DNA of 64,000 nucleotides from Vulcanimicrobiota bacterium (GTDB lineage Bacteria; Vulcanimicrobiota; Xenobia; Xenobiales; JADMJV01), in NCBI GenBank assembly GCA_050250895.1, contig JBFWNU010000006.1, positions 475,720 through 539,719 of the forward strand. Reading direction: 5' to 3'. A model generated the notes under the pieces. That model was given only the letters and a program-made list of their open reading frames with translations, had not been told where the DNA came from and did not search any database. The translations under genes were made by a program, and so were the position numbers. Below, piece by piece: positions 32,247 to 56,951 of this stretch; the stretch's first letter is position 1; each line of letters starts with the position of its first letter.

Positions 32247-33885
32247 CCGCTTTATCCAGATATTTCTCGAGCTTCTTGGGCGGCAACGGCGGCGAAAACA
32301 GGTGACCCTGCCCAAACTGGCAACCGTTTGCCTGGCACAGGGCCTTTTGGGCCTCGGTCTCGATGCCCTCGGCCAGCGTCTTGAGGTTGAGGCTGCGCGC
32401 TAGCGACAGGATAGCCGCCACCACCGTTCGACTCTCGCCATCGTCGGTGATGTCGCAAATCAAGCTTCGGTCGACTTTGAGCAGGTCAGCCCGCGAGCGG
32501 CGAATCTGGCGCAACGACGAAAGCCCCGTGCCGAAGTCGTCAATGGCGATGCGCACGCCCTTCTCGGCCAGCGCTGCGAACACGTCACCACTACGCTCTT
32601 GATCGACATCAGCGGCCTCTTCTCTGATGTCGAGCGAAATCGAGTTGGGCTCTAGCGAGTGCTGGGCCAGGGTTTCGGCCAGGTGGGCAACCAATCTCGG
32701 GTTAAGGAGTTGGCGCGCTGAGAGGTTGACGCTGATAAACAGTTTTCGCCCCTGGGCCTGCCAGGCGGCGGCCTGAGCGCAGGCTTGCTCGAGCACCCAT
32801 TCGCCGATCGAGACGATCAGGCCAGACTCTTCGGCTATCCGGATGAACTCGGCCGCCGGCAAGACCTCCTTGCCACGCTTCCAACGCAGCAAAGCTTCGA
32901 CACCGACCACCTCTTCGGTCTGCAGGTCCACCACGGGCTGATAGTAGAGCTGGAACTCTTTGCGTTTGACGGCCTGATGGAGACCGCTCTCGATGGTCAG
33001 GCGGCGCTGATGGCGCTCTTGCAGGTCGGGAGTATAGAATTGGTAGCGGCCCCGGCCCAGCTCTTTGGCGTGATACATGGCGCTATCGGCATGCCCCAAC
33101 ATCTGATGCGAGTTAGTCGCGTCGTGAGGGCAAAGGCTGACCCCGATGCTGGTGCCGACGTGATACTCCTGCCCACCGATCTGAAACGGTTCGTTGAACC
33201 CGTCGATGATGCGACAGGCCACGGTGGCGGCGCGGTCCATCACGGAGATGGGCGGGGCATCGGCGGTGGAGCGCTCGTCGCTGAGTTCGGTCAGGAGAAT
33301 GAGAAACTCGTCTTCACCCCGACGACCGATGATATCCGAGCTTCGAATCATACTCTGCAACCGCAGCGCCACCTGGCAGAGTAGCTCGTCGCCAGCGGCC
33401 ATGCCCAGCGCTTCGTTGACCACCTTGAAGCGGTCGAGGTCAAGCACGAGCAGGGCCGCGGCCCTTTCGTAGCGGCGGGCCTGGGTCAGGGTAAACTCCA
33501 TGAACTGGCTGATGATATTGAGGTTGGGCAGACCGGTGAGCGAGTCTTCAAAGGCTAATCGCTCGGTTTCTTCAGCCGCCCAGGCGCCGCCCACCTCTTG
33601 CAGCTGCACCAATTGGCACTGCTCACCGGACCAGTCGATGCGGCTTACCCGCACCATCAAGTTGATCGGGACCTCGTCCAGGCCGTCGACACACACTGTG
33701 CCGCTCTTGATGGGGAAGGGCAGGGCTGTGCCCTCGACTCGTTCGGTGCCCAATAGCTCTCGCGTTTGGCGGTTGCAGTAGCGCACACGCCCATCGGGCC
33801 CCACGATGGCTAACGGATCCAGGTGTTCTTCCACCAGGCTGGAGAATTCGGATTTGCCCACGCTAACGGCTTTGGAAGCCTTCAT
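32239..33885 (-). CDS. PAS-GGDEF-EAL protein
   Basis: DSLTGLPN, RRGEDEF, VEALLRW, IDDFGTGLSS, AEGIET; likely start at MKASKAV (33885). Confidence 0.9.
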   Translation of the reverse strand: MKASKAVSVGKSEFSSLVEEHLDPLAIVGPDGRVRYCNRQTRELLGTERVEGTALPFPIKSGTVCVDGLDEVPINLMVRVSRIDWSGEQCQLVQLQEVGGAWAAEETERLAFEDSLTGLPNLNIISQFMEFTLTQARRYERAAALLVLDLDRFKVVNEALGMAAGDELLCQVALRLQSMIRSSDIIGRRGEDEFLILLTELSDERSTADAPPISVMDRAATVACRIIDGFNEPFQIGGQEYHVGTSIGVSLCPHDATNSHQMLGHADSAMYHAKELGRGRYQFYTPDLQERHQRRLTIESGLHQAVKRKEFQLYYQPVVDLQTEEVVGVEALLRWKRGKEVLPAAEFIRIAEESGLIVSIGEWVLEQACAQAAAWQAQGRKLFISVNLSARQLLNPRLVAHLAETLAQHSLEPNSISLDIREEAADVDQERSGDVFAALAEKGVRIAIDDFGTGLSSLRQIRRSRADLLKVDRSLICDITDDGESRTVVAAILSLARSLNLKTLAEGIETEAQKALCQANGCQFGQGHLFSPPLPPKKLEKYLDKAAK

Positions 33886-33911
33886 AAGGAAAACTTCGGC
33901 AGGGCCTTTCG

Positions 33912-35228
33912 TTAGCCTCCAAGATTTGACTCGCCGTTCACCCACCGCACCGACTTCGAGCACGGGCAGGTGCCGCCGACGTGAGCCAGGCTGGGAGTGC
34001 GATGAGCCGCTTCCTCTGGTGTGAGCGTGCCCTGGGCCACCTGCTCGAGGTTCTCCAGGTAGGCGCGAAAGTCGCGCCCGGCCAGATAGCTTTCCGGCAA
34101 CTGCTGGCGCAGATGCTCCTGATAGGCTTCGAAGGTGGGGTATTTTTCTCCGTCGACACCCACCAGTTTGTAAGCGTGCATGCCGCGACGGCGGAAGAAC
34201 TCGACGTTGGGGCAGCGCAGCAGATCCTCTGGCTTGACCCCCTGATAGCTCGACCCTTCTTCGGTCAACTGCTGCAGGGCGCGGTCCATCTCCTCTGGGG
34301 TCGCCTCGGGAAAGCGCGCGCGAAGATAGCGCAGATTGAGCCCGGCGATCAGCTTCTCGACCTCGCGAACGTATTCGTCGAGGGCTTCTTGATTGGTCTT
34401 GTCTTTGAAGCCCAGCTTGATGTTGGTCCCGCCTCCGCGCTCGTCGCCGAACATCTCTAAGCCGCGCGGCAACCACTTGTTGATGGCTTTTTGAATCGCC
34501 TCGACCGAGACATAGATTTTGCCCTGGGCGGCCTCCTCCATCCAACGGCGCATGGGAACCACGCCGGCGGCCAGATGAAAGGCTTCTTCGCGCAGCATGG
34601 GGGGCATGCTTTCGGCCATCGGCTTATAGGCGCTGACCTTTTGCATGGCCAGTTGGTATTTTCCGACCCGATCGATCAGGGCGCAGAAAACCACGTTGTC
34701 TACGAACGAGTCGAAGTCGATGTTGAAGGCGCCCAACACGTGCGAACCGGGACGCATCGACAGGATCTCTTCCACCATGTCCTCGCCGCTCTGGCCGACT
34801 AGAGACTTCCAGTCATCCTCCAATAGGAGATGCAACATCTGGTAGCCGTGACGCAATTCCTCGGCCATCATCCGCAGGACCCAGAACTGATCGCGCTCGT
34901 CCTGGGCGCGGGCCAGGGTCAATCGATGTTGCTGGATCGAACCGAACTCGGTGCTGGCCTGGGCCCGCACCGCGCCGAGCAATTGATGGGCCTGCTTTTC
35001 ATTCATCTCGCTTGCCTGACAGAATTTCTTGCAGCCCACCATTTCGCCGACCTCGATGGTATCGGACATGCCGCACTGGCGATAGGCGCAGAGCTTGAAG
35101 CAAGGATCCTTCGGAAAATGCTTGTCCCAATTCTCGGTCAGAAAGCCCAGGTCAGGCAGGAAAGTCTTCTGCCATTTGACCACGGCGTCATGGTATTTTC
35201 CGGGTAGTGTCTCTTCGCGGACCGTCAT
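33912..35228 (-). CDS. BoxB/PaaA-like ferritin-type di-iron ring epoxidase subunit
   Basis: QASTEFGSIQQ, MAEELRHGYQM, DRVGKYQL, MLREEAFH (two ExxH), MFGDE. Confidence 0.75.
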   Translation of the reverse strand: MTVREETLPGKYHDAVVKWQKTFLPDLGFLTENWDKHFPKDPCFKLCAYRQCGMSDTIEVGEMVGCKKFCQASEMNEKQAHQLLGAVRAQASTEFGSIQQHRLTLARAQDERDQFWVLRMMAEELRHGYQMLHLLLEDDWKSLVGQSGEDMVEEILSMRPGSHVLGAFNIDFDSFVDNVVFCALIDRVGKYQLAMQKVSAYKPMAESMPPMLREEAFHLAAGVVPMRRWMEEAAQGKIYVSVEAIQKAINKWLPRGLEMFGDERGGGTNIKLGFKDKTNQEALDEYVREVEKLIAGLNLRYLRARFPEATPEEMDRALQQLTEEGSSYQGVKPEDLLRCPNVEFFRRRGMHAYKLVGVDGEKYPTFEAYQEHLRQQLPESYLAGRDFRAYLENLEQVAQGTLTPEEAAHRTPSLAHVGGTCPCSKSVRWVNGESNLGG

Positions 35229-39022: not shown

Positions 39023-42000
39023 GTGTTCTATTCCGTTAGCACTAACGCCGCCGCCCATAAGTCGGCTCGGCCCCGCCGAGACCAGCCGAATCCAACCGTC
39101 ACCAGCGGCGCTACCGAGCTGCTCGATTCTCGCACCGCTCCCCCCAGCAAGGCCGGTCACGGCGCTGGGGCGACTTGGGACTTGCCCTCAGGCTTTGACC
39201 CGCAACCCGAGGTCAAAGCCCCGGAAGCCAATTCGGGCTTTCACAAACTGGCCTCGGGAGCCGCACTGGCCTTATCGGTGCTGGGCGTCGGGGTGGGTAT
39301 GGTGGGTGCGGCTGCTCCCGCCTATGCCGCTACCAGCCAGAGCCTGACCGCCACGCGCAGCCAGTCTCCGGTGACTTTCAGCGACACCAACGACGTGGTC
39401 AGCAAGTTCGACGGTGTGCATCAGCTGTATGTCAAAGGCAATAGCCTCTCGGCGGCCGAGATGGCCAAGCTGCAAAAAATTCTCAAGGACTACCCCAACA
39501 TTTATGTCGTCTTGATGGACTACACGGCTGACGTGCAGTCGGCCGACTACACCGTCAGCCGCGGCATCGGCAACAGCCAGGCCTTCCAGGACGTGCGCAA
39601 CGAGGTCACCGGTGAAAAAGAAGCGGCCGTGTTCATGGTCTACTTCGACAGCAACCAGGGCCGCAAGATCTTCATGCGCTCCGAAGAGTTGCCCGACAAA
39701 GCCGGAGTCGGCGACCCCGATTTCGCGGTCAACGGCCAACCGGCCAAGCTGCTGCGGACCTTCCTGCGAGCCCGCGACGCGGGCAAAGATTTTCCGGGAA
39801 TGCTCGAGGATGTCTTTAAAGAGGTCGACTCGGGCGTCAATAACTATGTGAATAATCTGGTCAACGGAGCCCGCGATGGCATCTCGTCGGCCCAGACCCA
39901 GCTGACCTCGGCCCGCCAGAAGGTGGCCGAGTTTCAGAAGGAGCACGGCAAGAACCAGTCCGTCGGACACCCTGACCTCGAAGCCTGGTCGGGTCGCCTG
40001 GAACGGGCCAGGGCTGCTCTGGCCGCCAAAGACTTCGCGGGAGCGCGTAGCCTGGCTCAGAGCCTGCAGCGCGACATCCAGAATGAACTCTCCGCCATCG
40101 GCAGTTTCGAGCAAAGCCTGTCCTCGGCCCAACAGGTGGTCGATCAAGCCGAGCGCAAACTCGAAGAGGGCAAAGACGCCGTTAAAGCCTTTCAGCGCAG
40201 CGAAGGCAAAGGTGGCAGCCTGGGCAGCCCGGATGTGGCCGGTTGGGAAGGCCAGCTCAAGCAAGCGCGAGAAGCGCTCAGCCGCGGGAGCTTCGCCGAC
40301 GCTCGCAGCCTGGCCAATAACCTGGTCACCACCATCAGTATCTATCGCCAGAATGTGGCCGAGTTCCAGGCCGCCCAGACCACCGCGACCGCGGTGGAAG
40401 CCGATCTGGCCAAGCTGCAGGCCGAACTCGATACGCTCCCCGACAACAGCAAAGGCCAACAGGCCCGCCAACTTTACGCCCAGGCAAAAGAACACTTCGC
40501 GGACTATCAACGCCTTCACGACGGCAAAGAGAACGGCTATGCCTCGCCCCTGGCCGTGGCCCGCCAAGAGGTCGCTGAAGGATTAGAGCAGGCCTCGGCC
40601 TCGCGGGCCGAAGCCGAGGCCACCAAGAAGGCCATCATCATCGGCTCGACGGCGGTGACGGTCGGCATCGTCGCCCTCGGGGTCTTCGCCAACTATCGAG
40701 CCCGCCAGAAGCGCAAAGAGGCCAACCAGGCCCTCGAGAACGCTACCGCCGACATCAGCGCTCGCACCCAGGCCCTGGTCGCCTTGATGGACGAGGCCGA
40801 CTATCAGTCGATCGCCCGCTACAGTGGCAAGACCGAGAAGATGGCCAAGGACCTGATCGAGAACGTGACCGACGCCCTGACCCTGGTGGGTGGCGCCGAG
40901 AAGTTTCTCTCTGAGGCCGAAGCCCTGATCCAGCCCAAGAGCTTGAAGAACCTTTTCTTGACCGGCAACTATGAAAAGGGCATCGCCCTGTTGACCGACC
41001 CCGAGACCCGCCTGGATTTCAACTTCGAAGACAGCTCGCGAGCCGTCATGGACAAGGGCAGCAAAGCCGAATCGTGGCGCGACGAACTGCTGCGCAAGGG
41101 GGCCTCGCGCGAGTTCAAAAAGTCGCTCTATGAGGTGTTGCTGGCCATGGCCGAAAAGCGCGACACCGCCCGCGGTCTGCTCGACGAGATCACTTCCAAG
41201 AACGCCGAGATCACGAAGTTCCTCGACAGCGTCGAGGCGGCGGCCAGAGCGGCCGAAGAGCACTCGCGCGCTTTGCAAGAGTCGGGCCAGAAGGACCAGC
41301 TCTTTACCGCCCCGTCGGTCACCGAGAACTTGCTGCCGATGGTCAGCGGCCCAGCCCAAGAAGGCGGCTTGATCGCCCGTGGACGCGATATCAAAGAGTC
41401 GGACCCGGTCCGGGCCTGGGACGAGTTCGCCACCCCGGCCAGGCGGATGACCGGCGAGGCCGAGGGCGTGGTCGATCTAGGCAACTACAGTCGCGGCACT
41501 TTGCTGCCGACGCTGGTTCAGGCCGACGCGGCTCTCCATCCCCATCAGGTGGACACCAAATGGGCCCACCAGGCCACCGGCAAGCTTTCGGACCGGCTCG
41601 ACGACACGGCCGACACCGCCCTGCGCGTCTCGATCCAACAGCCGCTGGCGACTATCCGCCAGGAGGTGGATTCCCTGGTCGGCCAGGTCAAGACGGTGGT
41701 TCGTCAGGATCGTGAGCGTCGCGAGGTTGCCCCCGGCTTGATCAGCGGTGCCGAAGATGACGTGTCCACCGCCCGCAGCCAGATTGACGAAAAGCTCAAG
41801 GCGATGGGCCATTTTGCCAAAGGAAACCCGCAAGAAGTTTTGCGCGAGCCGGGTCTTGACCCCACCGACCGCACCCAGAAGGCCCATCAACATCTCGATT
41901 CCATCAAGCCGTTGCTCGACCGGGGCGATACCGCCACCGCCCAGAGACACCTGGACGGAGTTCGCTCTCAATCCGCCGAGGCCCACCAGATCGTGGCCGA

Positions 42001-43198
42001 CACGCGCAGCGCCCTGTCTGCCTATCCGGCCACTCTTAACGAGCGTCAGACCCGCACGCAAAGCATCGACGACAGCGTCGAGAGCGTCTATGCTCCCAGT
42101 CTTGATCGCATCAAACAGACCTATGTCCCCGAGGTGTTGCAGTTGATCGCTGGCGAGGTCAACTCGGGCGAGACCATCACCGACGACATTCCTAATGCCG
42201 ACAAGCTGTTGGCCAGGGCTCGCAAAGAGACCCAGGTGGCCGTGGGCCACTTCGATCAAGCTTATCTGCTCACTGCCCGTGACGACCTCAACGTGGTCGA
42301 TGGCACCCTCAAGGTCGCCCAGAATGAGCTGGATTCGGTGACCGGAGCCGAACAGTTGCTGGGCCAGAAGCAGCAGGCTGTCGAGAGTGAATTGAGATCG
42401 CTCGACAGTCGCCTGGGCCAGACCCGCCAACACGCTGGCGAGCACTACGTGCGCCGGCGCGCCAAGGAGCTGCTCGGCCAGGCCGAGCGGGCTGTCGGCT
42501 CGGCCCGCGTCGAGGTCGAACAGACCCCTCGCAACCCTTTTGCTGCCAAAACTTCGCTGGCTAGCGCCGAAGGCAGCCGCCAAGCCTGTGAGAGCGCCAT
42601 TGCGGCCGACCACCAGGCTTACACCTCGGCCGACTCGCGCATCGACAGCGCCGCCTCGGAGATCTCTAGCGCGGAATCAACCATCAGTTGGGCCCTGCGG
42701 CAGAACTGGAGCTATTCCTCGTCACAGGGTAGTGCCCACGAGTCGGTCGATCGTTCTGACCTTTCCTCGGCCTACAGCGCCCTCTCCTCGGCCGAATCGG
42801 CTCTGTCTTCGGCCCGCGGCCAAATGAACGGCCAGGGTTATGAAGAGGCCGAAAGTGAAGCTTCCCGCGCCATTAGCCACGCCAAGAACGCCGATAGCGA
42901 GGCTCGTTCGGCCGTCAATCGAGCTGAAAGCCGGTTCGAGGCCGAGAAAGCCCGCATCAAACACCTGGAATACCTTGAGGAGCAGCGTCGGCTCGAAGAA
43001 GAGCGACGCCGCCGTGAACAGCAAGAAGCCGAAGAACGCCGGCGTCGTGAAGAGCAGGAAGCCGAAGATCGACGACGCCGGGAAGAAGAGCAACGCCGCC
43101 GTGACGAGGAAAATCGCAACAGTGGCGGCGGCTCGGGTTCGTCGGGAGGCGGCTGGTCCGGTGGCGGAGGCAGCGGCTCAAGTGGAGGAAGCTGGTAA
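39023..43198 (+). CDS. 1391-aa membrane-anchored coiled-coil protein with Gly/Ser-Trp tail
   Basis: hydrophobic segments near aa 80-100 and ~540-560, long heptad-rich regions, EEERRRR tract, terminal GGGWSGGGGSGSSGGSW. Confidence 0.8.
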   Translation: MFYSVSTNAAAHKSARPRRDQPNPTVTSGATELLDSRTAPPSKAGHGAGATWDLPSGFDPQPEVKAPEANSGFHKLASGAALALSVLGVGVGMVGAAAPAYAATSQSLTATRSQSPVTFSDTNDVVSKFDGVHQLYVKGNSLSAAEMAKLQKILKDYPNIYVVLMDYTADVQSADYTVSRGIGNSQAFQDVRNEVTGEKEAAVFMVYFDSNQGRKIFMRSEELPDKAGVGDPDFAVNGQPAKLLRTFLRARDAGKDFPGMLEDVFKEVDSGVNNYVNNLVNGARDGISSAQTQLTSARQKVAEFQKEHGKNQSVGHPDLEAWSGRLERARAALAAKDFAGARSLAQSLQRDIQNELSAIGSFEQSLSSAQQVVDQAERKLEEGKDAVKAFQRSEGKGGSLGSPDVAGWEGQLKQAREALSRGSFADARSLANNLVTTISIYRQNVAEFQAAQTTATAVEADLAKLQAELDTLPDNSKGQQARQLYAQAKEHFADYQRLHDGKENGYASPLAVARQEVAEGLEQASASRAEAEATKKAIIIGSTAVTVGIVALGVFANYRARQKRKEANQALENATADISARTQALVALMDEADYQSIARYSGKTEKMAKDLIENVTDALTLVGGAEKFLSEAEALIQPKSLKNLFLTGNYEKGIALLTDPETRLDFNFEDSSRAVMDKGSKAESWRDELLRKGASREFKKSLYEVLLAMAEKRDTARGLLDEITSKNAEITKFLDSVEAAARAAEEHSRALQESGQKDQLFTAPSVTENLLPMVSGPAQEGGLIARGRDIKESDPVRAWDEFATPARRMTGEAEGVVDLGNYSRGTLLPTLVQADAALHPHQVDTKWAHQATGKLSDRLDDTADTALRVSIQQPLATIRQEVDSLVGQVKTVVRQDRERREVAPGLISGAEDDVSTARSQIDEKLKAMGHFAKGNPQEVLREPGLDPTDRTQKAHQHLDSIKPLLDRGDTATAQRHLDGVRSQSAEAHQIVADTRSALSAYPATLNERQTRTQSIDDSVESVYAPSLDRIKQTYVPEVLQLIAGEVNSGETITDDIPNADKLLARARKETQVAVGHFDQAYLLTARDDLNVVDGTLKVAQNELDSVTGAEQLLGQKQQAVESELRSLDSRLGQTRQHAGEHYVRRRAKELLGQAERAVGSARVEVEQTPRNPFAAKTSLASAEGSRQACESAIAADHQAYTSADSRIDSAASEISSAESTISWALRQNWSYSSSQGSAHESVDRSDLSSAYSALSSAESALSSARGQMNGQGYEEAESEASRAISHAKNADSEARSAVNRAESRFEAEKARIKHLEYLEEQRRLEEERRRREQQEAEERRRREEQEAEDRRRREEEQRRRDEENRNSGGGSGSSGGGWSGGGGSGSSGGSW

Positions 43199-43199
43199 A

Positions 43200-44648
43200 A
43201 TGAAAATCACCCCCTACGCAAATACGGCCATCCGTCCTAATCTGGCCAGCCAGGCGGCTCCCCAGCCGCCCAACGAGCCGGTGGACCAGGTGGACACCCC
43301 CAAAGACAACCAGAGTGAGGCGGCCGACTTCGCCCGTTTCGCCACGGGCGGTCTGGTGGGACTCGGTCTGGGCATCGCGGCCCTGTACGCGGGCACCCTG
43401 GGCGGGGCCGCCCTGGGCGCGGCCGTGGGCGGAGGCTTCGGGCCGGTGGTGGCCTCGGTGGCCAGTCACGGCACGCTGGGCTTTATCGGCACTACCTTTG
43501 CCACGGCCGGCGTAATGACCAAGGTCGGCATCGTGGCTGGCGGTATCACCGGCCTGGTGGGGGCTTTCGATATCGGCCGGCGCATCGGCCACGGCATCTC
43601 GGACACCATCAAGATGGCCTCGGGTAAAGCCGACCCTCACGATTTGCGACGGCAAGCCAAACCACTCTCGGGCAAGACCCAGGTGCTGGCCTCGGGCATC
43701 ACCGGGGTTGGGGCTGTGGCTGGCGGTCTGGGGGGCTTCTTTGGCGGAGCCGCCATCGGCGGTATCTCGGGCCTGGCCACCGGTTCAGGAATGGGGGCCG
43801 CGGCCGGCATCGGAGGATTGGCCGGCGGTCTGGCCTTCGCGGTGATGGGTGGCTGGGGTGGCTATCAGGTCGCCAAAGGCATTACTCACGCTGGTGGCGC
43901 GGCCGCGAAGGTGGCCGGCAAAGCGGTGGGTCCGCTGCTGGGGACCCGCTACAAGCGGGTCGAAACCCTCGAGCAGGAAGAGACCAAGCAGGCCCAACGC
44001 ACCAAGCAAATCGAGCGCGAAGCCTGGACGCTCGAGCGCCGCGAGATCGACGCCAAGAACGCCTTTGACTCGGCGATGGGCGGGATCAACGGCGAGTTGG
44101 ACGAGGCCCGCGGCAAACTCGACAAGTTGGCCGACGAGGTGGAAGGCAAAGCCCAGGTCAAGTTCCAGGCGGCGCATCCTGATCTGGCTACTCAGCGTCA
44201 GGACCTGACCGCCAGAGAAGAGCGGCTGACCACCCAGACGGCCCAGCTCGACACCGAGCAGGCCGCCCTCGATGCGACCCTCAATAGTCGAGCCGAGATT
44301 CGCACCCGTGAGCAGAAGAAGGCCATCGAGGCCGACTTCGCCGCCAAGAACGCCGCGCTTGACCCGCGCGAAGCCACCATCGCCGAGCAAGAGGCGGCCA
44401 TGAAGAAAGAGGCCCGTCAGCAAGCAGCTCCAGAGCTGGCTCGCAAGAGCGCCGACCTGCGCCGTGAACTGGTCACCGCCCGAGAGGATGAGACCCGCGC
44501 CGTGGGCTTCCGCGATGCCGTCGAAAAGGTCGGTCAATCGACCGCCCAACGAAGGGCTGATGCCGAAGCCGAATTCAAGAAAGCCGAAGCTGACCACGAC
44601 TACTGGCAGCGCGTGCTCGAACAGGTCAAGAAGGGCGAGGAAGCGTAA
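43200..44648 (+). CDS. glycine-zipper membrane protein with C-terminal coiled coil
   Basis: ATG 1 bp after upstream stop; two GxxxG-rich hydrophobic blocks, then charged coiled coil. Confidence 0.8.
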   Translation: MKITPYANTAIRPNLASQAAPQPPNEPVDQVDTPKDNQSEAADFARFATGGLVGLGLGIAALYAGTLGGAALGAAVGGGFGPVVASVASHGTLGFIGTTFATAGVMTKVGIVAGGITGLVGAFDIGRRIGHGISDTIKMASGKADPHDLRRQAKPLSGKTQVLASGITGVGAVAGGLGGFFGGAAIGGISGLATGSGMGAAAGIGGLAGGLAFAVMGGWGGYQVAKGITHAGGAAAKVAGKAVGPLLGTRYKRVETLEQEETKQAQRTKQIEREAWTLERREIDAKNAFDSAMGGINGELDEARGKLDKLADEVEGKAQVKFQAAHPDLATQRQDLTAREERLTTQTAQLDTEQAALDATLNSRAEIRTREQKKAIEADFAAKNAALDPREATIAEQEAAMKKEARQQAAPELARKSADLRRELVTAREDETRAVGFRDAVEKVGQSTAQRRADAEAEFKKAEADHDYWQRVLEQVKKGEEA

Positions 44649-44652
44649 AATC

Positions 44653-46158
44653 ATGAAAGTTGTAGCATTCAGAGCCAGCACCCCTACCCCCGCGCCTGCC
44701 CGGCCCGAAACAGTCAAACAACCGCTGGGCTCGCAGGTTAAGGAAGAGGCCGATCAGACTTCCATCGCCTTCGGTGATGTCACCGGGACCATCGTGGGTG
44801 GCGTTGCCGGCACGGCCCTGGCCGTCGGCTCGCTCTATGCGGGCGTGCTCGGTGGCGCGGCTGTCGGAGCCGCCTTCGGTGGCGGCATCGGGCCGATGGT
44901 AGCCGCCGTCAGCTCCCACGGCGCGCTCGATTTCATCGGCACCTCGTTTGCCACCGCCAGCCCGTTCATTCGAGTGGGCATGGTGTTGGGAGGCCTGGCT
45001 ACCGCCGCTGGTGCCTGGACCCTGGGCGAGAAGGTCGGCCGGGCCGTGGGCCGTCTGCCGGGCCGGGGCGTTGGCTATGCAGTGGGCGCGGGCAAAGGCG
45101 CTCTCAACAACGCTCTGGGCATACCGGCTCCCATCCCGGCTCCCGCCGAAGAAATCAAAGCCAAGCGCAATGTCGTGTTGTCAAAACCGTTACAGGGTGT
45201 CGCCTATGCCCTTTCGGGCGTGGGTGCTCTGTCGGGCATCGCTGGTGGTGCGCTGCTAGGCGCCGGCCTGATGGCCGCCGGGGGAGCCGTTACCGGTCTT
45301 TCGGCGGGCAATCTCACCTGGGGCGCCATCACCGGGGCCGCCAAACTGGGCGCTATTGTTGGTGGCCTGGGTGTGGGAGCCGCCGGAGCCGTGGGCGGAT
45401 ACCAGTTCGTGCGTGGGATGAAGGCCGCTGTCGAGGGTAGTGAGGTGGCCCAACGCTGGCTCTTGCTCGACAAGCGCGAAGAGGAATTGGTCGAAAACGC
45501 TATCAAGCTCGACAAACTGGCCGAGAAGAACGAGAAGAAGGCCGCTCAGGCCCAGACCGTGGATGCGGAGCGGGCAAGCCTTCTCGACCAGGCCCGCCAG
45601 AATCTGGACAAGATTCAAGACGAGCTGCGCTTTAACGCCGAGCACAAAAACTCCATGGTCGACCTGCGCGCCGACGAGTTGTTCAAGCACGAGTCCAGCG
45701 CGCTGGTCAGTGACCGCGCCGCGCTCGAAGAACGCGAGGCTGCCTACACCGAACGCCGAGCCAAAGTTGACCACGACACGGCCAACCTCGACGCCGCCGT
45801 CGAAGAGCGCAGCCGCCAGATGGTGGGCAACCTGGAGGGCGAACTGCAGGGTCGTTTGACCGAACGCACCGAGGCTCTCGATGCTCGCCAGGCCAAGCTT
45901 GACGGATTTCGTCAGGATCCCAGTCAGGTGGTGGCCGAGGTGGTCGACGAGATTCTGGCGCCCCAACGCCAGGAGATCGCCGACGTGCGGGCCAACATCG
46001 AGAAGGTCAACGCCGAAAAGGATGGGCTGAAGGCCAGGACCACGGCCGACGCGGCGGCCATAGAAGATCTCAAGCGCAACACCAACCGGGTGCGGCGCGA
46101 GACCGACATCACCAAGCTCGAAGTCCGCAAGTACCGGCAACGTCACGGCGAAGAATAG
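44653..46158 (+). CDS. glycine-zipper membrane protein with C-terminal coiled coil (paralog of upstream gene)
   Basis: shares LYAGxLGGAAxGAAxGGGxGPxVAxVxSHGxLxFIGTxFATA with 43200-44648. Confidence 0.8.
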   Translation: MKVVAFRASTPTPAPARPETVKQPLGSQVKEEADQTSIAFGDVTGTIVGGVAGTALAVGSLYAGVLGGAAVGAAFGGGIGPMVAAVSSHGALDFIGTSFATASPFIRVGMVLGGLATAAGAWTLGEKVGRAVGRLPGRGVGYAVGAGKGALNNALGIPAPIPAPAEEIKAKRNVVLSKPLQGVAYALSGVGALSGIAGGALLGAGLMAAGGAVTGLSAGNLTWGAITGAAKLGAIVGGLGVGAAGAVGGYQFVRGMKAAVEGSEVAQRWLLLDKREEELVENAIKLDKLAEKNEKKAAQAQTVDAERASLLDQARQNLDKIQDELRFNAEHKNSMVDLRADELFKHESSALVSDRAALEEREAAYTERRAKVDHDTANLDAAVEERSRQMVGNLEGELQGRLTERTEALDARQAKLDGFRQDPSQVVAEVVDEILAPQRQEIADVRANIEKVNAEKDGLKARTTADAAAIEDLKRNTNRVRRETDITKLEVRKYRQRHGEE

Positions 46159-46234
46159 CACCCTGCCGCGCCGAGGCAGATGTTTACAACCTGATAGCCT
46201 GTTAGGCCTGGCTTCGCGTTAGGTTCAACAGGCT

Positions 46235-47002
46235 ATGCTCATGAATGCCTTGATCGCCCCGGCCCTGCGGGCCGCCCAACTCCAGATTGGTCGAGAGAAA
46301 CCAGCCCCCGAGAAGGAATCGCTCATCCGCGATATGGTGCGCTCGGCCCCTGATCAGGACTGCGTCGAAGACGTGGTAGAGGCGCTCAGCGCCTACCCTG
46401 TCGAGGCCTTGCGTCGGGTTCACGACTACGGCACCAAAGTCGAGGTCTATGATTTCGACCAGGGGGATGCCGTGCCCGAATACCTTCCCACCCTGGCTAA
46501 CCCCAACACGTTGGGGGCCTACAACACCCAGGCGAACGTGCTCGGACTCGACCGCGACAACCTGGCGCCATTTGTCCTGCTCCACGAGTTCGCCCACGCC
46601 CTGGATGCCTCCCTGGGCGACCTCAGCGAAACCCCGGACTGGAAGGGCGCCCATCGCTTTGCCGAGGCTACCAATCGGGTGGTGCGGCCTTATGCCAAGC
46701 ACGACTCGGCCGAGTATCTGGCCGAGAACACGGCCGCCTATCTGATCGCCGACGACTCGCTGTTGCCACTGATCGAACGCGGACTAGAAGAGCAGCTTGG
46801 CACCGAGGGTTTGACCGAGCACGAGTATCTGCAGATGAATCAGAACTTCTGCAACGGTCGCCTCCAGCGTATCGATCCCGACGGACACCGTCTGGTCGAG
46901 CACATGTTGGAGGCGGCCGACGAGATGCCGCCGGTACCGGCCCGCCCGGCCATGACCGGCGAACAGTGGCACATCTGGCAGCAACAACATCGGGCCGCCT
47001 AG
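46235..47002 (+). CDS. zinc metallopeptidase, anthrax lethal factor catalytic-domain (ATLF)-like
   Basis: LGAYN, VLLHEFAHALD, LSETPDW, YAKHDSAEYLAE (HExxH...Y...E pattern). Confidence 0.7.
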   Translation: MLMNALIAPALRAAQLQIGREKPAPEKESLIRDMVRSAPDQDCVEDVVEALSAYPVEALRRVHDYGTKVEVYDFDQGDAVPEYLPTLANPNTLGAYNTQANVLGLDRDNLAPFVLLHEFAHALDASLGDLSETPDWKGAHRFAEATNRVVRPYAKHDSAEYLAENTAAYLIADDSLLPLIERGLEEQLGTEGLTEHEYLQMNQNFCNGRLQRIDPDGHRLVEHMLEAADEMPPVPARPAMTGEQWHIWQQQHRAA

Positions 47003-47005
47003 CGG

Positions 47006-47602
47006 CTACTCGAGATGGATGGCCGCGGTGCGGGCCAGCACGCAGCCCAGCGCCACCAGATGCAGGGTCGGGGCGATTCCCGGCAGGCAGGCCGAGGCGA
47101 TGACGGCGGCGCCCTTGCCAATCTGCATGGCACCGGCAAAGGCTCGAATAGCTTTGTTCTGTTCGTGAGCGTGGCGAATGTCGTTGGCGCCAACGGCCAA
47201 CTCGGTGAGGCCGTGCACGCCCTCAAAGGCCGCGATGGCCAGTCCACCCGGGTGGTGGCCGTGACCCAGCGCCAGACTGACGGCGGCCATGCCGGCGGTA
47301 GCTGCCATGGCCAGGTGACCCACGCCCTCAATCTTGTCGAGGCGCGATTCGGAGCGAACTTTAGCCACTCCCCAGGCCAGCCCACCCAAACCGACCACGG
47401 CGGCGACGCCAAGGCCTACACCGGCCGGGAGATGATGGTCGAAGGCGACTTCGCTGCCCACATGCAGCAACTCGAGACCTTGCAGAGCCAGGGGGTTCTC
47501 TCCGCCGAGAGTATGTTCGGGGGCCAGGCTCTTGAAGAGGGGGGGAAGCCGAGGCTCGACCCACTGACGGTGTTGATACTGAAAGGCCGAAGCGATTTTC
47601 AC
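47006..47602 (-). CDS. hypothetical Gly/Ala/His-rich membrane protein
   Basis: 198-aa ORF with 3-4 hydrophobic segments. Confidence 0.65.
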   Translation of the reverse strand: MKIASAFQYQHRQWVEPRLPPLFKSLAPEHTLGGENPLALQGLELLHVGSEVAFDHHLPAGVGLGVAAVVGLGGLAWGVAKVRSESRLDKIEGVGHLAMAATAGMAAVSLALGHGHHPGGLAIAAFEGVHGLTELAVGANDIRHAHEQNKAIRAFAGAMQIGKGAAVIASACLPGIAPTLHLVALGCVLARTAAIHLE

Positions 47603-47663
47603 GGGTCGATCAAATCACCGACCGACCCGGCGATCCTTTCCGACGTGTAAACCAAAGGCCAGG

Positions 47664-47708
47664 CAAAAAAAAAGCGCCCATCCTGTTGCGGCTACAGGAA
47701 CGGGACGC
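47664..47708 (-). terminator. intrinsic terminator (orphan)
   Basis: minus strand GCGTCCCGTTCCTGT-AGCCGCA-ACAGGATGGGCGC followed by T10. Confidence 0.65.
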
Positions 47709-48364
47709 GGGCTACGGGCGTGGCGTGTTGGAAATTCTCGTTTTTTTGGTGCCGCTTAGAGCTTTATCAACCTCTGTTCTAAATGTATCGAAAATGTTTA
47801 GACGATTCTGTGTGCTAGTTCACATCCTGGCGATCTCGACCAGCGTGCAACCTCGAGTTAACATCCCGGCCTGCCCCCTCGTTCCGGGAGAAACATCCCC
47901 AGAAGTCCACAGCGAAATTGGCTTCAAATCACAGTTTTACCACAAGGAATTCACACCGGAACGACGGAACGAAGGTCCAAGATTTGGGAGGATTGTTTCG
48001 TCATGTTTCGCAGATTGCCACTTTTACAGAAGACCACCTTTACCGGCCGGGAGGGCAACGTTGCGCCGCCGGCCGCGGGTGGCCGGGTCCACATGGTCGT
48101 CGGGGTGGGACCCGTCGCCCGTCACGCGGATTGCGTCTCTGAGAGCCTGGCCCGGCTCAAGCGTTCGGCCGGCATCTACTACCGCCTGGCTTCGATGTCG
48201 GTCAAGCTCGACGATTAGGTTGGTGTGCGACTCGCCAGGGGGGCGCTCGTTTGAAAACCGCCGAGGTCGCCGAGACGCAGAGGAGTCGGAGGGGCGCTCT
48301 GTCTGCGCCCACCTCCATGTTCAACCTCGAAAGGGCACCGACCTGATCGCCAACGTCTCGAGCT

Positions 48365-48868
48365 TCAGTCTACCTCGGACAGGATGGCTTCGCCTTCAAT
48401 GACCACGTCGTCGTCGCCGAGGAGTTCTCCGTCATGGATCACGGTTTCGGCGTTGAGTTTGTACAGGCCGTTACCAGCGGGCGTGAGCGTGGCTCTGAGA
48501 AAATTGATGGCGCTGCCCGCGATCGAGAGCACGGCGTGGCGTTGCTCGGGGGGCAAGGACTTGAGCTTGTCGATGAAGGCCATCACCTTAGGATCTTGCA
48601 GACAGCGGGCCTGGGAGAGGCGCAAGGGGTAGAGCAGCTTGCCGCCCCGCTGGTCGTGGAAGAAGTCAGACAAGGGCATGCCCAGGGCCCGGGCAAGCTT
48701 GGTGATTACCTCGACCGATGGGTTGGCGGAATCGTTCTCGATGCGAGAAATAAAGGATGCAGAGACGCCGGATTTTTTCTCCAGCTGTTTGATAGTCAGG
48801 TTGCGAGCTTTGCGGTTAAAGTGCAGAATTTTCCCGAAGCTCTTTTTGGGCTCTCCGATGACGGCCAC
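48365..48868 (-). CDS. XRE-family HTH transcriptional regulator
   Basis: RKARNLTIKQLEKKSGVSASFISRIEND.ANPSVEVITKLARALG. Confidence 0.9.
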   Translation of the reverse strand: MAVIGEPKKSFGKILHFNRKARNLTIKQLEKKSGVSASFISRIENDSANPSVEVITKLARALGMPLSDFFHDQRGGKLLYPLRLSQARCLQDPKVMAFIDKLKSLPPEQRHAVLSIAGSAINFLRATLTPAGNGLYKLNAETVIHDGELLGDDDVVIEGEAILSEVD

Positions 48869-53561: not shown

Positions 53562-54947
53562 TCATCGATTCAAAAAACCGAAGACTCCTTCTTTTTTCTG
53601 GCCTTCGGGTTTCTCTGGCTCGCTCGATGACCGGTCGGGCGAAGCCCCTTCCAGTTCGACCTGTCCCGCCACCTCGACCTTGATTCCGGAGGCGATCTCG
53701 GTGGTCGCCAGCACACCCAGGCCAGGAACGGACCTGGCCAGAATCTTGCGCACGAAGAGCCGAGTCGGTGGGTCGGTAAACAGCACCGGCGGCGAGCCGT
53801 GCTCTTCTAGCTGTTTGCGCACCGCCACCACCAGGTCCTCGGCCGTGTCCTTGGTCAAGCTGAGAACCGGCCCGCGGTCGGTTGACTGGATACTATCGGT
53901 CAACAGCTTCTCGGTGTTGGGACCGAGCGCCAGCCCACGCAACACGCCATCTTGATTGAGGTAAGTATTGCAAATCTGGCGAGATAGCGCTCCGCGACAG
54001 AACTCGGTCACCAGGTCGACCCGCTCGAGCCGGTCGAGCATATCGCCGGCCGTTTCGAGAATGGTCACCAGATCGCGCACCGGAACCCGCTCCGATAGCA
54101 GGTTGCGCAGCACCTGGCGAATCAAGCGCAGGTTGCGACGGTCGACCAGAAAGTCTTCTACCACCACCGGGTGGGTGGGGGCCAGTCGGGTGATGAGTTC
54201 ATGGGTTTCTTGCAGACCCAGGAGTTCGGGACAGGCCGTGGCCACAATCGCTTTGAGGTGGGTCATCAGCACGGCCAGCGGGCCCAGCACCAGGCAGCCC
54301 GATTGTTCAGCCTGGTCGCGCAACTCGGGCTCGATCCACTTGGCCCGCATGCGATGGACCGGGTCGGTGGTGGCCCAACCCTCGAGGCGGTCGAGCTGCT
54401 CGTGGCCACCCAGTGCCATCAGTCGATCGAGGAACACTTCACCCGCGGCGGCGGCAGCGTCTTTGATGCGAACCACATACTGGTTGGGGTCGAGCTGAAG
54501 GTTATCTAGCACCCGAATGGGAGGGGTAACGATGCCCAACTCGCGAGCTACGTCTTCGCGCACACTCTCGAGCTTGCCCATCAAAGGACAACCGTGCTGG
54601 GGATCGGCCACCGGCAGCAGCGAGCGGCCCAATTCGAGCGCCAGAGGATCCTGATAAACATAGGGGTCGGTACCCGGCTCGGCTCGGCCGTCGAAGCTCA
54701 GTTGCAGCTCGCCCTCGACGTTCCAGCCCTCGTTGACCAGGCGCATCAGGCCCTGCTGGACCTCGGCTTTGAGACCGTAGTGGGTGCCCACGAAGAGATA
54801 GCAGACATCCTCGTCGCCGCGGGTGAGCTTGATATAGATCTGGCGACCCTTCTCGTTTCGCTTCCACGGGGCGAACGGTTCGTAGAGATCGCCGATGCGC
54901 AGCACCTGCAGGCTCTCCTGCATCTCCTCCGGCTTGTTTCTGGCCAT
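53562..54947 (-). CDS. FHIPEP-family protein: FlhA/SctV cytoplasmic domain without transmembrane region
   Basis: DPLALELGRSLLP, RELGIVTPPIRVLDNLQL, ELLGLQET, VLRNLLSERVPVRDLVTILE, TEFCRGALSRQI, VLATTEI. Confidence 0.85.
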   Translation of the reverse strand: MARNKPEEMQESLQVLRIGDLYEPFAPWKRNEKGRQIYIKLTRGDEDVCYLFVGTHYGLKAEVQQGLMRLVNEGWNVEGELQLSFDGRAEPGTDPYVYQDPLALELGRSLLPVADPQHGCPLMGKLESVREDVARELGIVTPPIRVLDNLQLDPNQYVVRIKDAAAAAGEVFLDRLMALGGHEQLDRLEGWATTDPVHRMRAKWIEPELRDQAEQSGCLVLGPLAVLMTHLKAIVATACPELLGLQETHELITRLAPTHPVVVEDFLVDRRNLRLIRQVLRNLLSERVPVRDLVTILETAGDMLDRLERVDLVTEFCRGALSRQICNTYLNQDGVLRGLALGPNTEKLLTDSIQSTDRGPVLSLTKDTAEDLVVAVRKQLEEHGSPPVLFTDPPTRLFVRKILARSVPGLGVLATTEIASGIKVEVAGQVELEGASPDRSSSEPEKPEGQKKEGVFGFLNR

Positions 54948-54949
54948 CG

Positions 54950-55471
54950 CTACCCTTTCTGTTCCTCGGCCGGCTGCTCGGTGGGCTCCTCGGCCGGCTC
55001 GAACTCCAGGGGCTTCTGATTATCGACCCACTGCACCTTACCATCCATCTGGCTCAATTCGAGTCCGAACTCTTTGGTGAACCAGGCGGCCAGTTCAGGG
55101 TTGTCGAGGGTCTTGACCGGGCCGCTGACCCACACGATGGAACTCTTCTTGCTCATCAGCTCTTCAGGAGTCACGCCGTTACCGGCGCGCACCAACACAC
55201 CCTTGTCAGGAGTCGAAGTCGAGATGAGCACGAAAAAGCCCGAACTGTTAAGCTCGGGAGAGTTGATATGGGCGGCCAGTTCTCCCGAACAAGAGAGTAA
55301 AGCCGTGCCACTCATCTCTTCGACCTGCTCGGGAAGTTGGCGATGATCGTAGCCCTGGTCCTTGACCACGGCAGCCGGCGTGGGCGTGGCCGCCGGGGGC
55401 GTGGGGTTGGTGCAGCCCACCATCGTGAGACCGGCCAGAAGTAACGTGAATAATGGAGTCCATCTCGACAT
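54950..55471 (-). CDS. lipoprotein of unknown function
   Basis: MSRWTPLFTLLLAGLTMVGC lipobox-like; stop 2 bp before the FHIPEP start. Confidence 0.75.
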   Translation of the reverse strand: MSRWTPLFTLLLAGLTMVGCTNPTPPAATPTPAAVVKDQGYDHRQLPEQVEEMSGTALLSCSGELAAHINSPELNSSGFFVLISTSTPDKGVLVRAGNGVTPEELMSKKSSIVWVSGPVKTLDNPELAAWFTKEFGLELSQMDGKVQWVDNQKPLEFEPAEEPTEQPAEEQKG

Positions 55472-55556
55472 AGAGGCCCAGTTAAACCCACCCCCGGACG
55501 AATCCTTTCGAGCCCCGGTGAGAGGTCGGTTTACCGCTGTGCCGAAGGTGGATGTC

Positions 55557-56951
55557 GTGGCCGATTTCTTGACTCTCGAGGAAGCCGCCGAGCAACTCGG
55601 CATCGACGACACCACCCTGCGGCGCTGGATCAAAAGGGGCAAGGCGCTGGCCTCGCGCCGAGCGGGCACCTATTTGCTGCGCGCCACCGAAGTGGATCGT
55701 TTGCGCACGGTTGCCCCCGAAGACGAGAGCGAACCGATGTTGTCGATTCCGCGAGCCGTCAAGCCCAGTCGACCCAAAGCCGGGGCCGACGAGTTGCTGG
55801 CCCAGATGCAAGAGCGCTTGCAACGCCTCGAAGAGATGCAGACCCAGGCCCCCGCGCCCGACCGCAGCGCGGCCCTGGAAGAACGAATCACCGATCTCAC
55901 CGAAGAGTTGCGAGCCCGCGATCAGGCTATCGATGAACTCGAGGCCAGGCTCGACTCCAAAGATGACGAGAAGGCGGTGGCCGCAGCGGTCGAGGCCGCC
56001 ACCGCCCCCCTTCAAGAGCGGCTTGCCGGCCTCGAGAACGAACTGAAAACCAGTCGCCTGGAGCTGGCTGAGTACCGCTCCAAACTCGATCGCCTGGAAA
56101 GCGAGAAGGCCGAGTTGGCGGGGCAGAGCCGGGCTCTCAAGAGCGAGCTCGCGAAGACTTCCACCGAGAACCTGGAACTCGACCGGGTCCGTTCGCGGGC
56201 CGAGGCGTTATTGCTCGAGAAGGAAGAGCTACTCGAGCGAGTGCGGGCGCTCGAGGCCAGCCCCCCGGTAGACCACGAGAGGACTCACGAACTCGAACGG
56301 CAATTGGCCGATCAGGTGCTGCTGGCCGGACGGCTCGAGCGTGAACGCGACGAACTGCGCGACCGAGCCGGACGACTGGTCCGCGATTTGGCCGCCCGCA
56401 CCCGCGACAGCCAGGACCTGGATCACCTGGCCGACCGTTATGACGAACTGGTGGTTCACACTAATAAGGTCGAGCATCAGTTAGAACAGGCCCTGGACCG
56501 ATTGTCGGCCATCGAGCGAGAGTTTGCCTCGAGCAGCGACGCGTTCGAGACCCGCGAAGCTCAGCTCGAACTCGAGAATCGCCGCTTGAAAGAGAAGCTC
56601 AACGACCTGCAATACAAGCTCGAACTGGGGGGCGGGTCGCGCCAGTCCGAGGATGCCCGCGAGCTCCTTGGACAGATGGCCGCCCTCGAAGAACAAATGG
56701 CGGAAAAAGATGCCTTGATTCAAGGCGAGTATCGCGAGAAGGCCGCTCTCATCGACCGCTGCGAACACCTCGAGCGAGAGTTTTATGACCTGCAACAACG
56801 GTATGACAAAGAGAAATCCGAGTGGTCCGAGATCCTGGCCCGCGAGATCCAGAACCGAGATCGGCTGATCCAGCAGTCTTATGACCCGACTCCCAAGGGG
56901 CAACAACGCGGAGGCTGGGGGCTGTTTCGCCCCAAGAATGACACCCGATGA
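55557..56951 (+). CDS. excisionase/MerR-like HTH + long coiled-coil protein
   Basis: FLTLEEAAEQLGIDDTTLRRWIKRGK followed by ~380 aa of heptad-rich helix; start approximate (GTG). Confidence 0.75.
   Translation: MADFLTLEEAAEQLGIDDTTLRRWIKRGKALASRRAGTYLLRATEVDRLRTVAPEDESEPMLSIPRAVKPSRPKAGADELLAQMQERLQRLEEMQTQAPAPDRSAALEERITDLTEELRARDQAIDELEARLDSKDDEKAVAAAVEAATAPLQERLAGLENELKTSRLELAEYRSKLDRLESEKAELAGQSRALKSELAKTSTENLELDRVRSRAEALLLEKEELLERVRALEASPPVDHERTHELERQLADQVLLAGRLERERDELRDRAGRLVRDLAARTRDSQDLDHLADRYDELVVHTNKVEHQLEQALDRLSAIEREFASSSDAFETREAQLELENRRLKEKLNDLQYKLELGGGSRQSEDARELLGQMAALEEQMAEKDALIQGEYREKAALIDRCEHLEREFYDLQQRYDKEKSEWSEILAREIQNRDRLIQQSYDPTPKGQQRGGWGLFRPKNDTR

Follow-up and report, generated by a model that had tools for sequence, protein, structure and literature searches.

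A soluble, membrane-less paralogue of the FlhA cytoplasmic domain, with an added N-terminal domain, in a Vulcanimicrobiota bacterium

We analysed a stretch of 64,000 nucleotides, referred to here as the window, from a bacterium of the phylum Vulcanimicrobiota (class Xenobia, order Xenobiales; assembly GCA_050250895.1, contig JBFWNU010000006.1, positions 475,720 to 539,719). The interval 53562..55471 of the window consists of two co-directional open reading frames (ORFs) on the minus strand, and the downstream one encodes a protein related to FlhA. FlhA's cytoplasmic domain (FlhA_C) is regarded as a built-in part of the type III export gate, and its nonameric ring sets the order in which substrates are exported. 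The protein encoded here, which we call the paralogue, is an intact, single-copy, soluble FlhA_C in which a small added N-terminal domain replaces the membrane part. Its gene is laid out as follows; the evidence for each part is in brackets, where AF2 stands for AlphaFold2, pLDDT for the predicted local distance difference test and dN/dS for the ratio of non-synonymous to synonymous substitution rates.

53562..54947, minus strand: the whole gene of the soluble FlhA_C paralogue, 461 amino acids (aa), ATG start, stop codon at 53562-53564 (ORF and translation; Pfam FHIPEP)
54684..54947, minus strand: N-domain, residues 1-88, a small, lineage-specific alpha/beta domain with the motif LMRLVNEGWxVEGE (AF2 models)
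54645..54683, minus strand: residues 89-101, EPGTDPYVYQDP, a conserved linker with acidic and aromatic residues (aligned with FlhA of E. coli; 67 orthologues)
53652..54644, minus strand: complete FlhA_C with subdomains D1-D4, residues 102-432 (Pfam, Foldseek, comparison of functional sites)
53565..53651, minus strand: disordered spacer rich in proline and glutamate, then the basic-hydrophobic peptide KKEGVFGFLNR, residues 433-461 (pLDDT, motif, dN/dS)

A preliminary description of this DNA, made from the sequence alone, had proposed a stand-alone soluble cytoplasmic domain of the FlhA type, and profile and structure comparisons both bear this out. The Pfam family FHIPEP matched the paralogue with an E-value of 7.6e-77 and 259.7 bits, well past the domain cut-off of 29.1 bits, and the match was confined to profile positions 327-656 of 657, covered by residues 96-422, which is the C-terminal half of the family only. 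The NCBIfam model for FlhA (TIGR01398) gave 271.4 bits over profile positions 338-678 only and failed its equivalog cut-off of 772.1 bits, while the models for SctV, the gate protein of the injectisome, scored below those for FlhA (TIGR01399, 137.4 bits, cut-off 692). The paralogue is 40% identical to the corresponding domain of the flagellar FlhA encoded in the same genome. An AF2 model computed from 67 orthologues had a mean pLDDT of 89.2, and a Foldseek search with this model found Salmonella FlhA_C (6ch1; E-value 2.3e-31, target TM-score 0.91, 337 columns) along with more FlhA_C and SctV_C structures, some of them nonameric. The paralogue thus shares a homologous C-terminal domain with SctV, to which its structural matches reach E-values of about 1e-24, but it is closer to FlhA (271 against 137 bits), and the tree described below places the family among flagellar FlhA.

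The absence of a multi-pass membrane region, the second claim of the preliminary description, was confirmed by a Kyte-Doolittle analysis with 19-residue windows and a threshold of 1.6, which found no membrane segment in the paralogue. The only such window above the threshold, beginning at residue 218, falls partly on a helix of FlhA_C that is modelled with confidence (residues 223-242), and therefore does not represent a membrane segment. By the same measure the two full-length FlhA proteins of the genome have 6 and 8 hydrophobic windows. The surroundings of the gene were equally devoid of type III components, as had been claimed: none of the 48 other ORFs of the window belonged to a flagellar or injectisome family when scanned against Pfam, and no ORF carrying the N-terminal half of FHIPEP adjoined the gene. 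Unlike FlhA, the paralogue has a novel N-domain in place of the membrane domain, and neither flhB nor any flagellar gene adjoins it.

We compared the functional sites of FlhA_C by moving the site numbering onto the paralogue through an alignment with FlhA of E. coli K-12 and counting residues over the 67 orthologues. We take the E. coli numbering to be equal to that of Salmonella, which is consistent with G368, V404, D456, F459 and T490 falling on those residues. According to PMC5916509, D456, F459 and T490 form the dimple that binds export chaperones; ring formation, substrate switching and FliJ binding depend on E351, W354 and D356 of the FlhA linker and on R391, K392, K393 and L401 of D1; and E508, Q511, L512 and R515 of D3 contact the linker of the neighbouring subunit. 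In the paralogue family, position 456 was D or E in 67 of 67 orthologues and position 457 was P in 65. Position 459 was occupied by H (33), F (15), Y (12), L (6) or R (1), and position 490 mostly by T (44), A (10) or H (9), next to an H at 491 in all 67. The D3 contacts were also kept, with E/D at 508 in 66, L at 512 in 61 and R/K at 515 in all orthologues. In D1, position 391 was R in 65 and position 401 was V, I or L in 63, whereas E or D stood at position 392 in 55 and at position 393 in 62 of the 67; the two full-length FlhA proteins of the genome read RRS and RRH at 391-393. From these alignments, the chaperone-docking dimple appears largely retained in the family, and the basic R391-K392-K393 patch, which makes the linker and FliJ contacts, is charge-reversed at the aligned positions. 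Compared with FlhA (Salmonella 6ch1 and 3a5i, and the Vibrio nonamer 7amy), the paralogue therefore keeps the four-subdomain fold and D456, P457, H491, E508, L512 and R515, but differs in the reversed charges at K392/K393, in the frequent His at F459, and in the extra disordered tail with its terminal peptide.

Taken together, these comparisons show a protein without three features that define FlhA as an export-gate subunit: it has no membrane domain, its gene is not set in a flagellar operon and its basic patch is not kept. It also falls below the equivalog cut-off, and the name "flagellar biosynthesis protein FlhA", which some sources use for relatives of the paralogue, should not be applied to it.

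The linker EPGTDPYVYQDP, whose counterpart in the alignment is the C-terminal portion of the linker in FlhA (E351-S362 of E. coli), is acidic, with E90 being E or D in 61 of 67 orthologues and D94 being D in 65. Residues 438-461 had pLDDT values below 50 in the AF2 model, as expected of a disordered segment. The terminal peptide followed the strict pattern (K/R)(K/R)EG[VLM][FL]G[FL]LK in 31 of 67 orthologues, with several more recognised by eye, and the last 11 residues of the paralogue have a hydrophobic moment of 1.1 on the Kyte-Doolittle scale. As a lead, the peptide may resemble the amphipathic membrane-targeting peptides of the MinD or FtsA type, in which a flexible spacer is followed by a short terminal helix of basic and hydrophobic residues. 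By this analogy, the tail peptide may tether the paralogue to the membrane in about half of the family.

The N-domain has a beta-beta-alpha-beta arrangement in the AF2 model, with strands at residues 33-43, 47-54 and 76-86 and a helix at 61-72, and its invariant or nearly invariant residues over the 67 orthologues include P27, G34, G54, L70, N72, G74, W75, G79 and G87. Folded alone from 25 sequences, it reached a pLDDT of 84.4. Residues 1-88 had no Pfam match; a search of the Protein Data Bank (PDB) with VIA gave a best Z of 4.5 (4e0q_B), with none of 48,161 chains at Z of at least 5, and a Foldseek search of the PDB with the N-domain alone gave no match at an E-value of 0.001 or below. Results as weak as these are no proof that the fold is new. 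When 1.84 billion cluster representatives were searched with a profile of the N-domain, 16 proteins matched at an E-value of 0.001 or below. Eleven of these are 427-496 aa long with the match at the extreme N-terminus, and the other five are shorter entries of 62-263 aa, which we take to be fragments. Judged by these profile matches, the N-domain is known only in the architecture N-domain plus FlhA_C. An hhalign comparison of this profile with the N-termini of two other paralogues showed no relation (probability 0.1-0.2).

We then asked how widely and how intact the gene is kept. A six-frame search of 31 genomes, comprising the genome itself and members of its genus, family and order, matched the paralogue in all 31 at 44-78% identity. 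The matches spanned both the N-domain and FlhA_C (query starts at residues 1-11, ends at 430-460), and the reading frame was intact in 29 of the 31, with a single in-frame TAG in each of the other two. A wider sample of 201 genomes of the phylum, whose tallies include one genome flagged as unpublished (G177, family f15) on which no conclusion depends, was searched with the N-terminal 100 residues. The N-domain was present in 59 of them, in a single copy each and in open frames of about 425-700 aa: in 40 of 40 genomes of the order, in 4 of 4 from other families of the class, and in all sampled members of nine further families. It was not found in families f15 (0 of 114), f20 (0 of 15), f13 (0 of 5), f12 (0 of 3), f21 (0 of 3), f8 (0 of 1) and f16 (0 of 1). 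FlhA was present in 184 of the 201 genomes. The FlhA membrane domain was carried by 56 of the 59 genomes with the N-domain; the remaining three are 69-85% complete, and two of these hold C-terminal FHIPEP fragments, one of them truncated where its contig begins. In one family of small genomes (2.2-3.5 Mb), two FHIPEP matches are the usual number, the paralogue and one full-length FlhA, and one genome has a third, fragmentary match; the genomes of 2.2-2.6 Mb retain the paralogue and one full-length FlhA only.

Selection was measured as Nei-Gojobori dN/dS in 15 orthologue pairs, with the main values taken from the 6 pairs in which dS of the N-domain was below 1, the other 9 pairs being saturated or undefined in at least one region. 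In the 6 pairs, dN/dS was 0.014-0.054 for the N-domain, 0.021-0.070 for FlhA_C and mostly 0.2-0.7 for the tail, which gave zero in one pair; where defined in the other 9 pairs, the N-domain value was 0.008-0.115. The linker is the most constrained part of the paralogue: 10 of the 15 pairs, among them all 6 with N-domain dS below 1, show no non-synonymous change there. The paralogue is under strong purifying selection.

A maximum-likelihood tree was built from 52 FlhA_C regions, including 21 soluble orthologues, in a quick IQ-TREE search with SH-aLRT support only and E. coli as the outgroup; the partial paralogues par6 and par9 were left out. The soluble orthologues formed one clade (SH-aLRT 98), nested within a clade of support 99 that also contains the phylum's own flagellar FlhA. 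Firmicutes FlhA and the second FlhA of the same genome fell outside the latter clade, and four of the five other paralogues of this genome in the tree fell inside it, on very long branches that make their placement unsure. By branch lengths the soluble family evolves several-fold faster than the phylum's FlhA_C. The nesting of the soluble clade among the phylum's FlhA indicates that the family arose by duplication of the phylum's own flhA. In an old event of this kind the membrane domain would have been lost, and a lineage-specific alpha/beta domain of about 90 aa would have been gained, joined through the short linker to a complete FlhA_C.

A type III machine encoded elsewhere had been suggested in the preliminary description, and the genome does have flagellar gene sets. 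FHIPEP matched ten genes, two of which encode full-length FlhA, each adjoining a full-length FlhB. Both lie beside FlhB and FliR in flagellar clusters on contig C1:

C1:555000-594000: flagellar cluster 1, with FliW, FlgL, FlgK, FlgM, rod proteins, FlgA, FlgH, FlgI, flagellin, FliD, FliS, a FliA-like sigma factor, MotA/B, FlhA, FlhB, FliR, FliF, FliG and FliH
C1:1458900-1476200: flagellar cluster 2, with FlgB/C, FliE, FliF, FliG, FliI, FliJ, FliK, FliM, FliN, FliO, FliP, FliQ, FliR, FlhB and FlhA

FlhA, FlhB, FliR, FliF and FliG occur in both sets; flagellin, FliD, FliS, FlgK/L, FlgM, the L/P-ring genes and MotAB only in the first; and FliI, FliJ, FliK, FliM/N and FliOPQ only in the second.

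The other eight FHIPEP matches, the studied paralogue and seven more, are non-canonical FlhA_C genes, membrane-less or rewired, that lie outside the flagellar operons. The preliminary description, which had proposed counting such genes genome-wide, had missed how many there are. Relatives with large genomes have 5-13 matches to the paralogue per genome, and small genomes have 2-3. The seven further genes with the C-terminal domain of FHIPEP carry varied N- or C-terminal additions:

C1:2013805-2014944 (L039:10809-11936, minus strand): a 376-aa protein with an XRE-type HTH_3 domain fused to FHIPEP 321-578
C1:2473535-2476609 (L040:5605-8607, plus strand): a protein of 1001 aa that combines FHIPEP 259-587 with an internal stretch like FliG_N and several hydrophobic segments, which are not related to the membrane domain of FlhA
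C1:1126937-1128250 (L042:5941-7200, minus strand): a soluble FlhB C-terminal domain (Bac_export_2 247-333) and FlhA_C D3-D4 (FHIPEP 457-654)
C7:121829-123112: FHIPEP C-terminal-domain gene
C7:117220-118779: FHIPEP C-terminal-domain gene
C1:2008317-2009819: FHIPEP C-terminal-domain gene
C8:31608-33212: FHIPEP C-terminal-domain gene

The architecture of the first of these, HTH plus FHIPEP, recurs in about 9 database clusters, of which the one labelled cluster is from Eremiobacteraeota, and the protein of C1:1126937-1128250 unites parts of the cytoplasmic domains of both gate proteins. A separate locus (L044:3952-5520 and C1:1291554-1291772) has a FliK-like gene followed by a short ORF with the FlhB C-terminal domain (FlhB_C) only, in an open frame of 186 aa, and downstream of it are rod genes of the FlgF/G type and genes for a rod-binding protein and a sigma factor like FliA. 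The pair recalls fliK2-flhX, described in Pseudomonas putida (10.1101/2021.08.29.457346).

Two genes adjoin the paralogue gene within its order:

54950..55471, minus strand: lipoprotein gene, 173 aa from the Met before the signal peptide (translation; lipobox)
55362..56951, plus strand: divergently transcribed HTH_17 protein with a long coiled coil (Pfam HTH_17), flanking the operon in 19 of 20 genomes from the order

The stop codon of the lipoprotein gene and the start codon of the paralogue form the junction TAG-CG-ATG, so the gap of 2 bp given in the preliminary description is correct. A Shine-Dalgarno-like AAAGGG lies 6-8 nt upstream of the ATG, and this arrangement suggests that the two genes are probably translationally coupled. 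The signal peptide of the lipoprotein comprises residues 1-19, and MSRWTPLFTLLLAGLTMVG precedes the lipobox Cys20 at 55412-55414, which was invariant in 19 of 19 aligned orthologues and preceded by G, A or S. The lipoprotein had no Pfam or NCBIfam match, and the ESM Atlas gave weak leads only (feature scores of at most 0.87 and TM-scores of at most 0.49), some rows being OB-fold-like. All 20 loci from the order, which represent all six sampled genera, have it directly upstream of the paralogue and in the same orientation, with an overlap or a spacing of a few nucleotides in two families and about 55-120 nt in a third. In 10 loci from other classes, whose orthologues are 36-46% identical to the paralogue, BLASTP found it in none; at one of them an ORF that resembles a lipoprotein but is unrelated to this one lies upstream of the orthologue. 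The pairing noted in the preliminary description therefore holds as a trait of the order, and the lipoprotein is neither an obligate partner nor a defining feature of the family. Instead, 9 of those 10 loci carry an RNase PH gene directly downstream of the orthologue, as does one locus within the order (L021); the RNase PH gene of the present genome is on another contig.

The one genome in which the HTH_17 coiled-coil neighbour was missed has only about 800 bp of flanking sequence, and at paralogue loci outside the order neither the lipoprotein nor the HTH neighbour was conserved. The true start of the neighbour is probably a GTG at 55539-55557, its HTH lies at 55566-55703 and its C-terminus ends in ...GGWGLFRPKNDTR. 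All 13 complete C-termini of the neighbour, the window copy included, end in peptides of the type G-[WFR]-x-[LPS]-[FL]-[RKF], for example GGWGLFRPK and GFKLFRNR. This terminal peptide resembles the tail of the paralogue, and the likeness in sequence may possibly reflect shared targeting or a shared partner. Relatives of the neighbour are about 290-1215 aa long, with a conserved ...EWSEILA... block before the terminal aromatic-basic peptide. Downstream of the paralogue, DUF1800/DUF1501 genes occur only in its own family. Upstream of the operon of lipoprotein and paralogue, the divergent intergenic region measures 70-85 bp; a sigma-28-type promoter was sought here by eye and the attempt was dropped, this divergent region and the lack of established promoter rules for the phylum making such a search unreliable.

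Elsewhere in the window, two convergent, adjoining genes encode GGDEF-EAL proteins of 1047 aa (29103-32243, plus strand) and 768 aa (32242-34545, minus strand), and an IS-type transposase with an rve integrase core and HTH_21 lies at 17089-17937 (plus strand). Six successive ORFs at 39023-48399 (plus strand; 1391, 602, 564, 255, 211 and 238 aa) had no Pfam match at an E-value of 1e-6 or below, and a small HTH_3 gene read in the opposite direction (48368-48868) marks the end of the run.

We rationalized the function of the paralogue from the sites that it keeps and the one that it reverses. The reading that we prefer, and to which we give an even chance, is that the paralogue would be a cytoplasmic module of flagellar type III export that docks cargo or regulates independently of the gate. 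The cytoplasmic protein would dock chaperone-substrate complexes through the retained dimple between D1 and D2, and FliS-flagellin would be the one recognisable complex of this kind in the genome. The charge-reversed Arg-Lys-Lys patch would keep it out of the gate activation driven by FliJ and the linker. Because the dimple is kept and the patch reversed, the paralogue would bind cargo without joining gate activation, and it would act as a platform that holds, sorts or buffers substrates, or as a regulator, and not as a gate subunit; within the order it would do so from an operon shared with the lipoprotein. The adaptor or regulator of an export machine put forward in the preliminary description fits the descent from the phylum's FlhA, the co-occurrence with full-length FlhA and the dimple that appears largely kept, while the function itself we infer. 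A homodimer prediction with two copies of residues 85-435 gave no verdict (score 0.00) and is evidence neither for nor against binding.

Several observations weigh against this reading. The paralogue is not in a flagellar operon, and none of its neighbours (the lipoprotein, the HTH-coiled-coil protein, DUF1800/DUF1501 and RNase PH) is flagellar. Most flagellated genomes of the phylum sample lack the paralogue, which therefore is not needed for flagella as such, and as FlhA is found in nearly all genomes, its co-occurrence with the paralogue is weak evidence. Within the dimple, the key residue F459 is replaced by His in half of the family and T490 is variable, the alignment of the linker to E351/W354/D356 is uncertain, and the only evidence for a membrane tether is the composition of a tail that is missing from about half of the orthologues. 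Finally, the FlgN and FliT families of Pfam were not found in the genome, although for such small and divergent proteins non-detection does not show absence.

An alternative on the unlikely side, but a real one, is that the paralogue has no flagellar role and that the FlhA_C fold serves here as a general protein-binding or sensor module. Its partners would be the lipoprotein and the HTH-coiled-coil protein, and its functions would concern the envelope, the cell pole or transcription. The seven further FlhA_C proteins outside flagellar operons, among which are fusions with FlhB_C, with an XRE HTH and with a region of transmembrane segments and FliG_N, favour this alternative, as do the spread of the HTH_3-FHIPEP fusions over about 9 database clusters, the non-flagellar neighbourhood conserved in the order and the similar aromatic-basic terminal peptides of neighbour and paralogue. 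However, the small genomes retain no soluble copy other than the paralogue, which they have alongside one flagellar FlhA, most dimple residues are kept, and no complete genome was seen with the paralogue but without FlhA. The two proposed partners, moreover, are not conserved beside it outside the order.

It seems quite unlikely to us that the paralogue acts directly on the gate as a poison or cap, inserting into the nonameric FlhA_C ring or stacking on it and so modulating its remodelling, for example at the switch from hook-type to filament-type export. The acidic linker would occupy R391-K392-K393 of FlhA, and the paralogue's own reversed patch would accept no linker in return. Such a role agrees with the constraint on EPGTDPYVYQDP, which is acidic and has a dN of zero in 10 of 15 pairs, with the retention of E508, L512 and R515, the D3 residues that contact a neighbour's linker in FlhA, and with the reversal at 392/393 where the genome's own FlhA proteins have RRS and RRH. 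Yet W354 has no clear counterpart in the paralogue, and a constitutive poison would be costly.

The chance that the gene is a decaying fragment of a duplicated or split flhA, as the presence of only the C-terminal half of FHIPEP might suggest, is practically nil, being ruled out by frames intact in 29 of 31 genomes, dN/dS values of 0.014-0.07, a confidently folded N-domain (pLDDT 84-89) conserved across classes and the lack of an adjoining N-terminal half. The preliminary description had set beforehand that a remnant, or an N-terminus free of constraint, would refute it, and both are excluded by this conservation and by the dN/dS of the N-domain.

The docking or regulatory module that we prefer has its nearest functional analogy in FlhX, a stand-alone paralogue of FlhB_C. 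FlhX is described as partly replacing the function of FlhB in H. pylori (10.1101/2021.08.29.457346). On that account, both FlhX and the paralogue are membrane-less copies of the cytoplasmic domain of a gate protein, encoded apart from the gate genes; unlike FlhX, the paralogue derives from FlhA and not from FlhB, and has an added domain that FlhX lacks, and the likeness is one of analogy and not of homology. We found no description of a membrane-less FlhA_C paralogue in the literature, in a search at the level of listings and abstracts that largely did not cover subscription journals.

A broader and rather unlikely extension of the docking reading is that, in Xenobia and related Eremiobacterota, the cytoplasmic domain of FlhA escaped the gate and became a modular domain that senses cargo or state. 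The phylum-wide soluble copy would then build a further docking ring apart from the gate, perhaps held at the membrane by its C-terminal peptide, in which flagellar substrates are staged or buffered. Together with up to about ten further copies per genome, wired to HTH, FlhB_C, FliG_N/transmembrane and uncharacterised domains, it would make up a so far unrecognised network of regulators that read how far type III export has proceeded or in what state it is.

The paralogue would be a natural separation-of-function variant, in which most of the cargo-docking dimple is kept and the patch for FliJ and the linker is lost. It would give researchers on flagella and injectisomes a handle on which activities of FlhA_C need coupling to the membrane engine, and it would be for FlhA what FlhX, itself little understood, is for FlhB. 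The eight non-canonical FlhA_C genes of one genome suggest that the domain may be reusable as a general module, and this expansion occurs in a phylum with almost no experimental biology.

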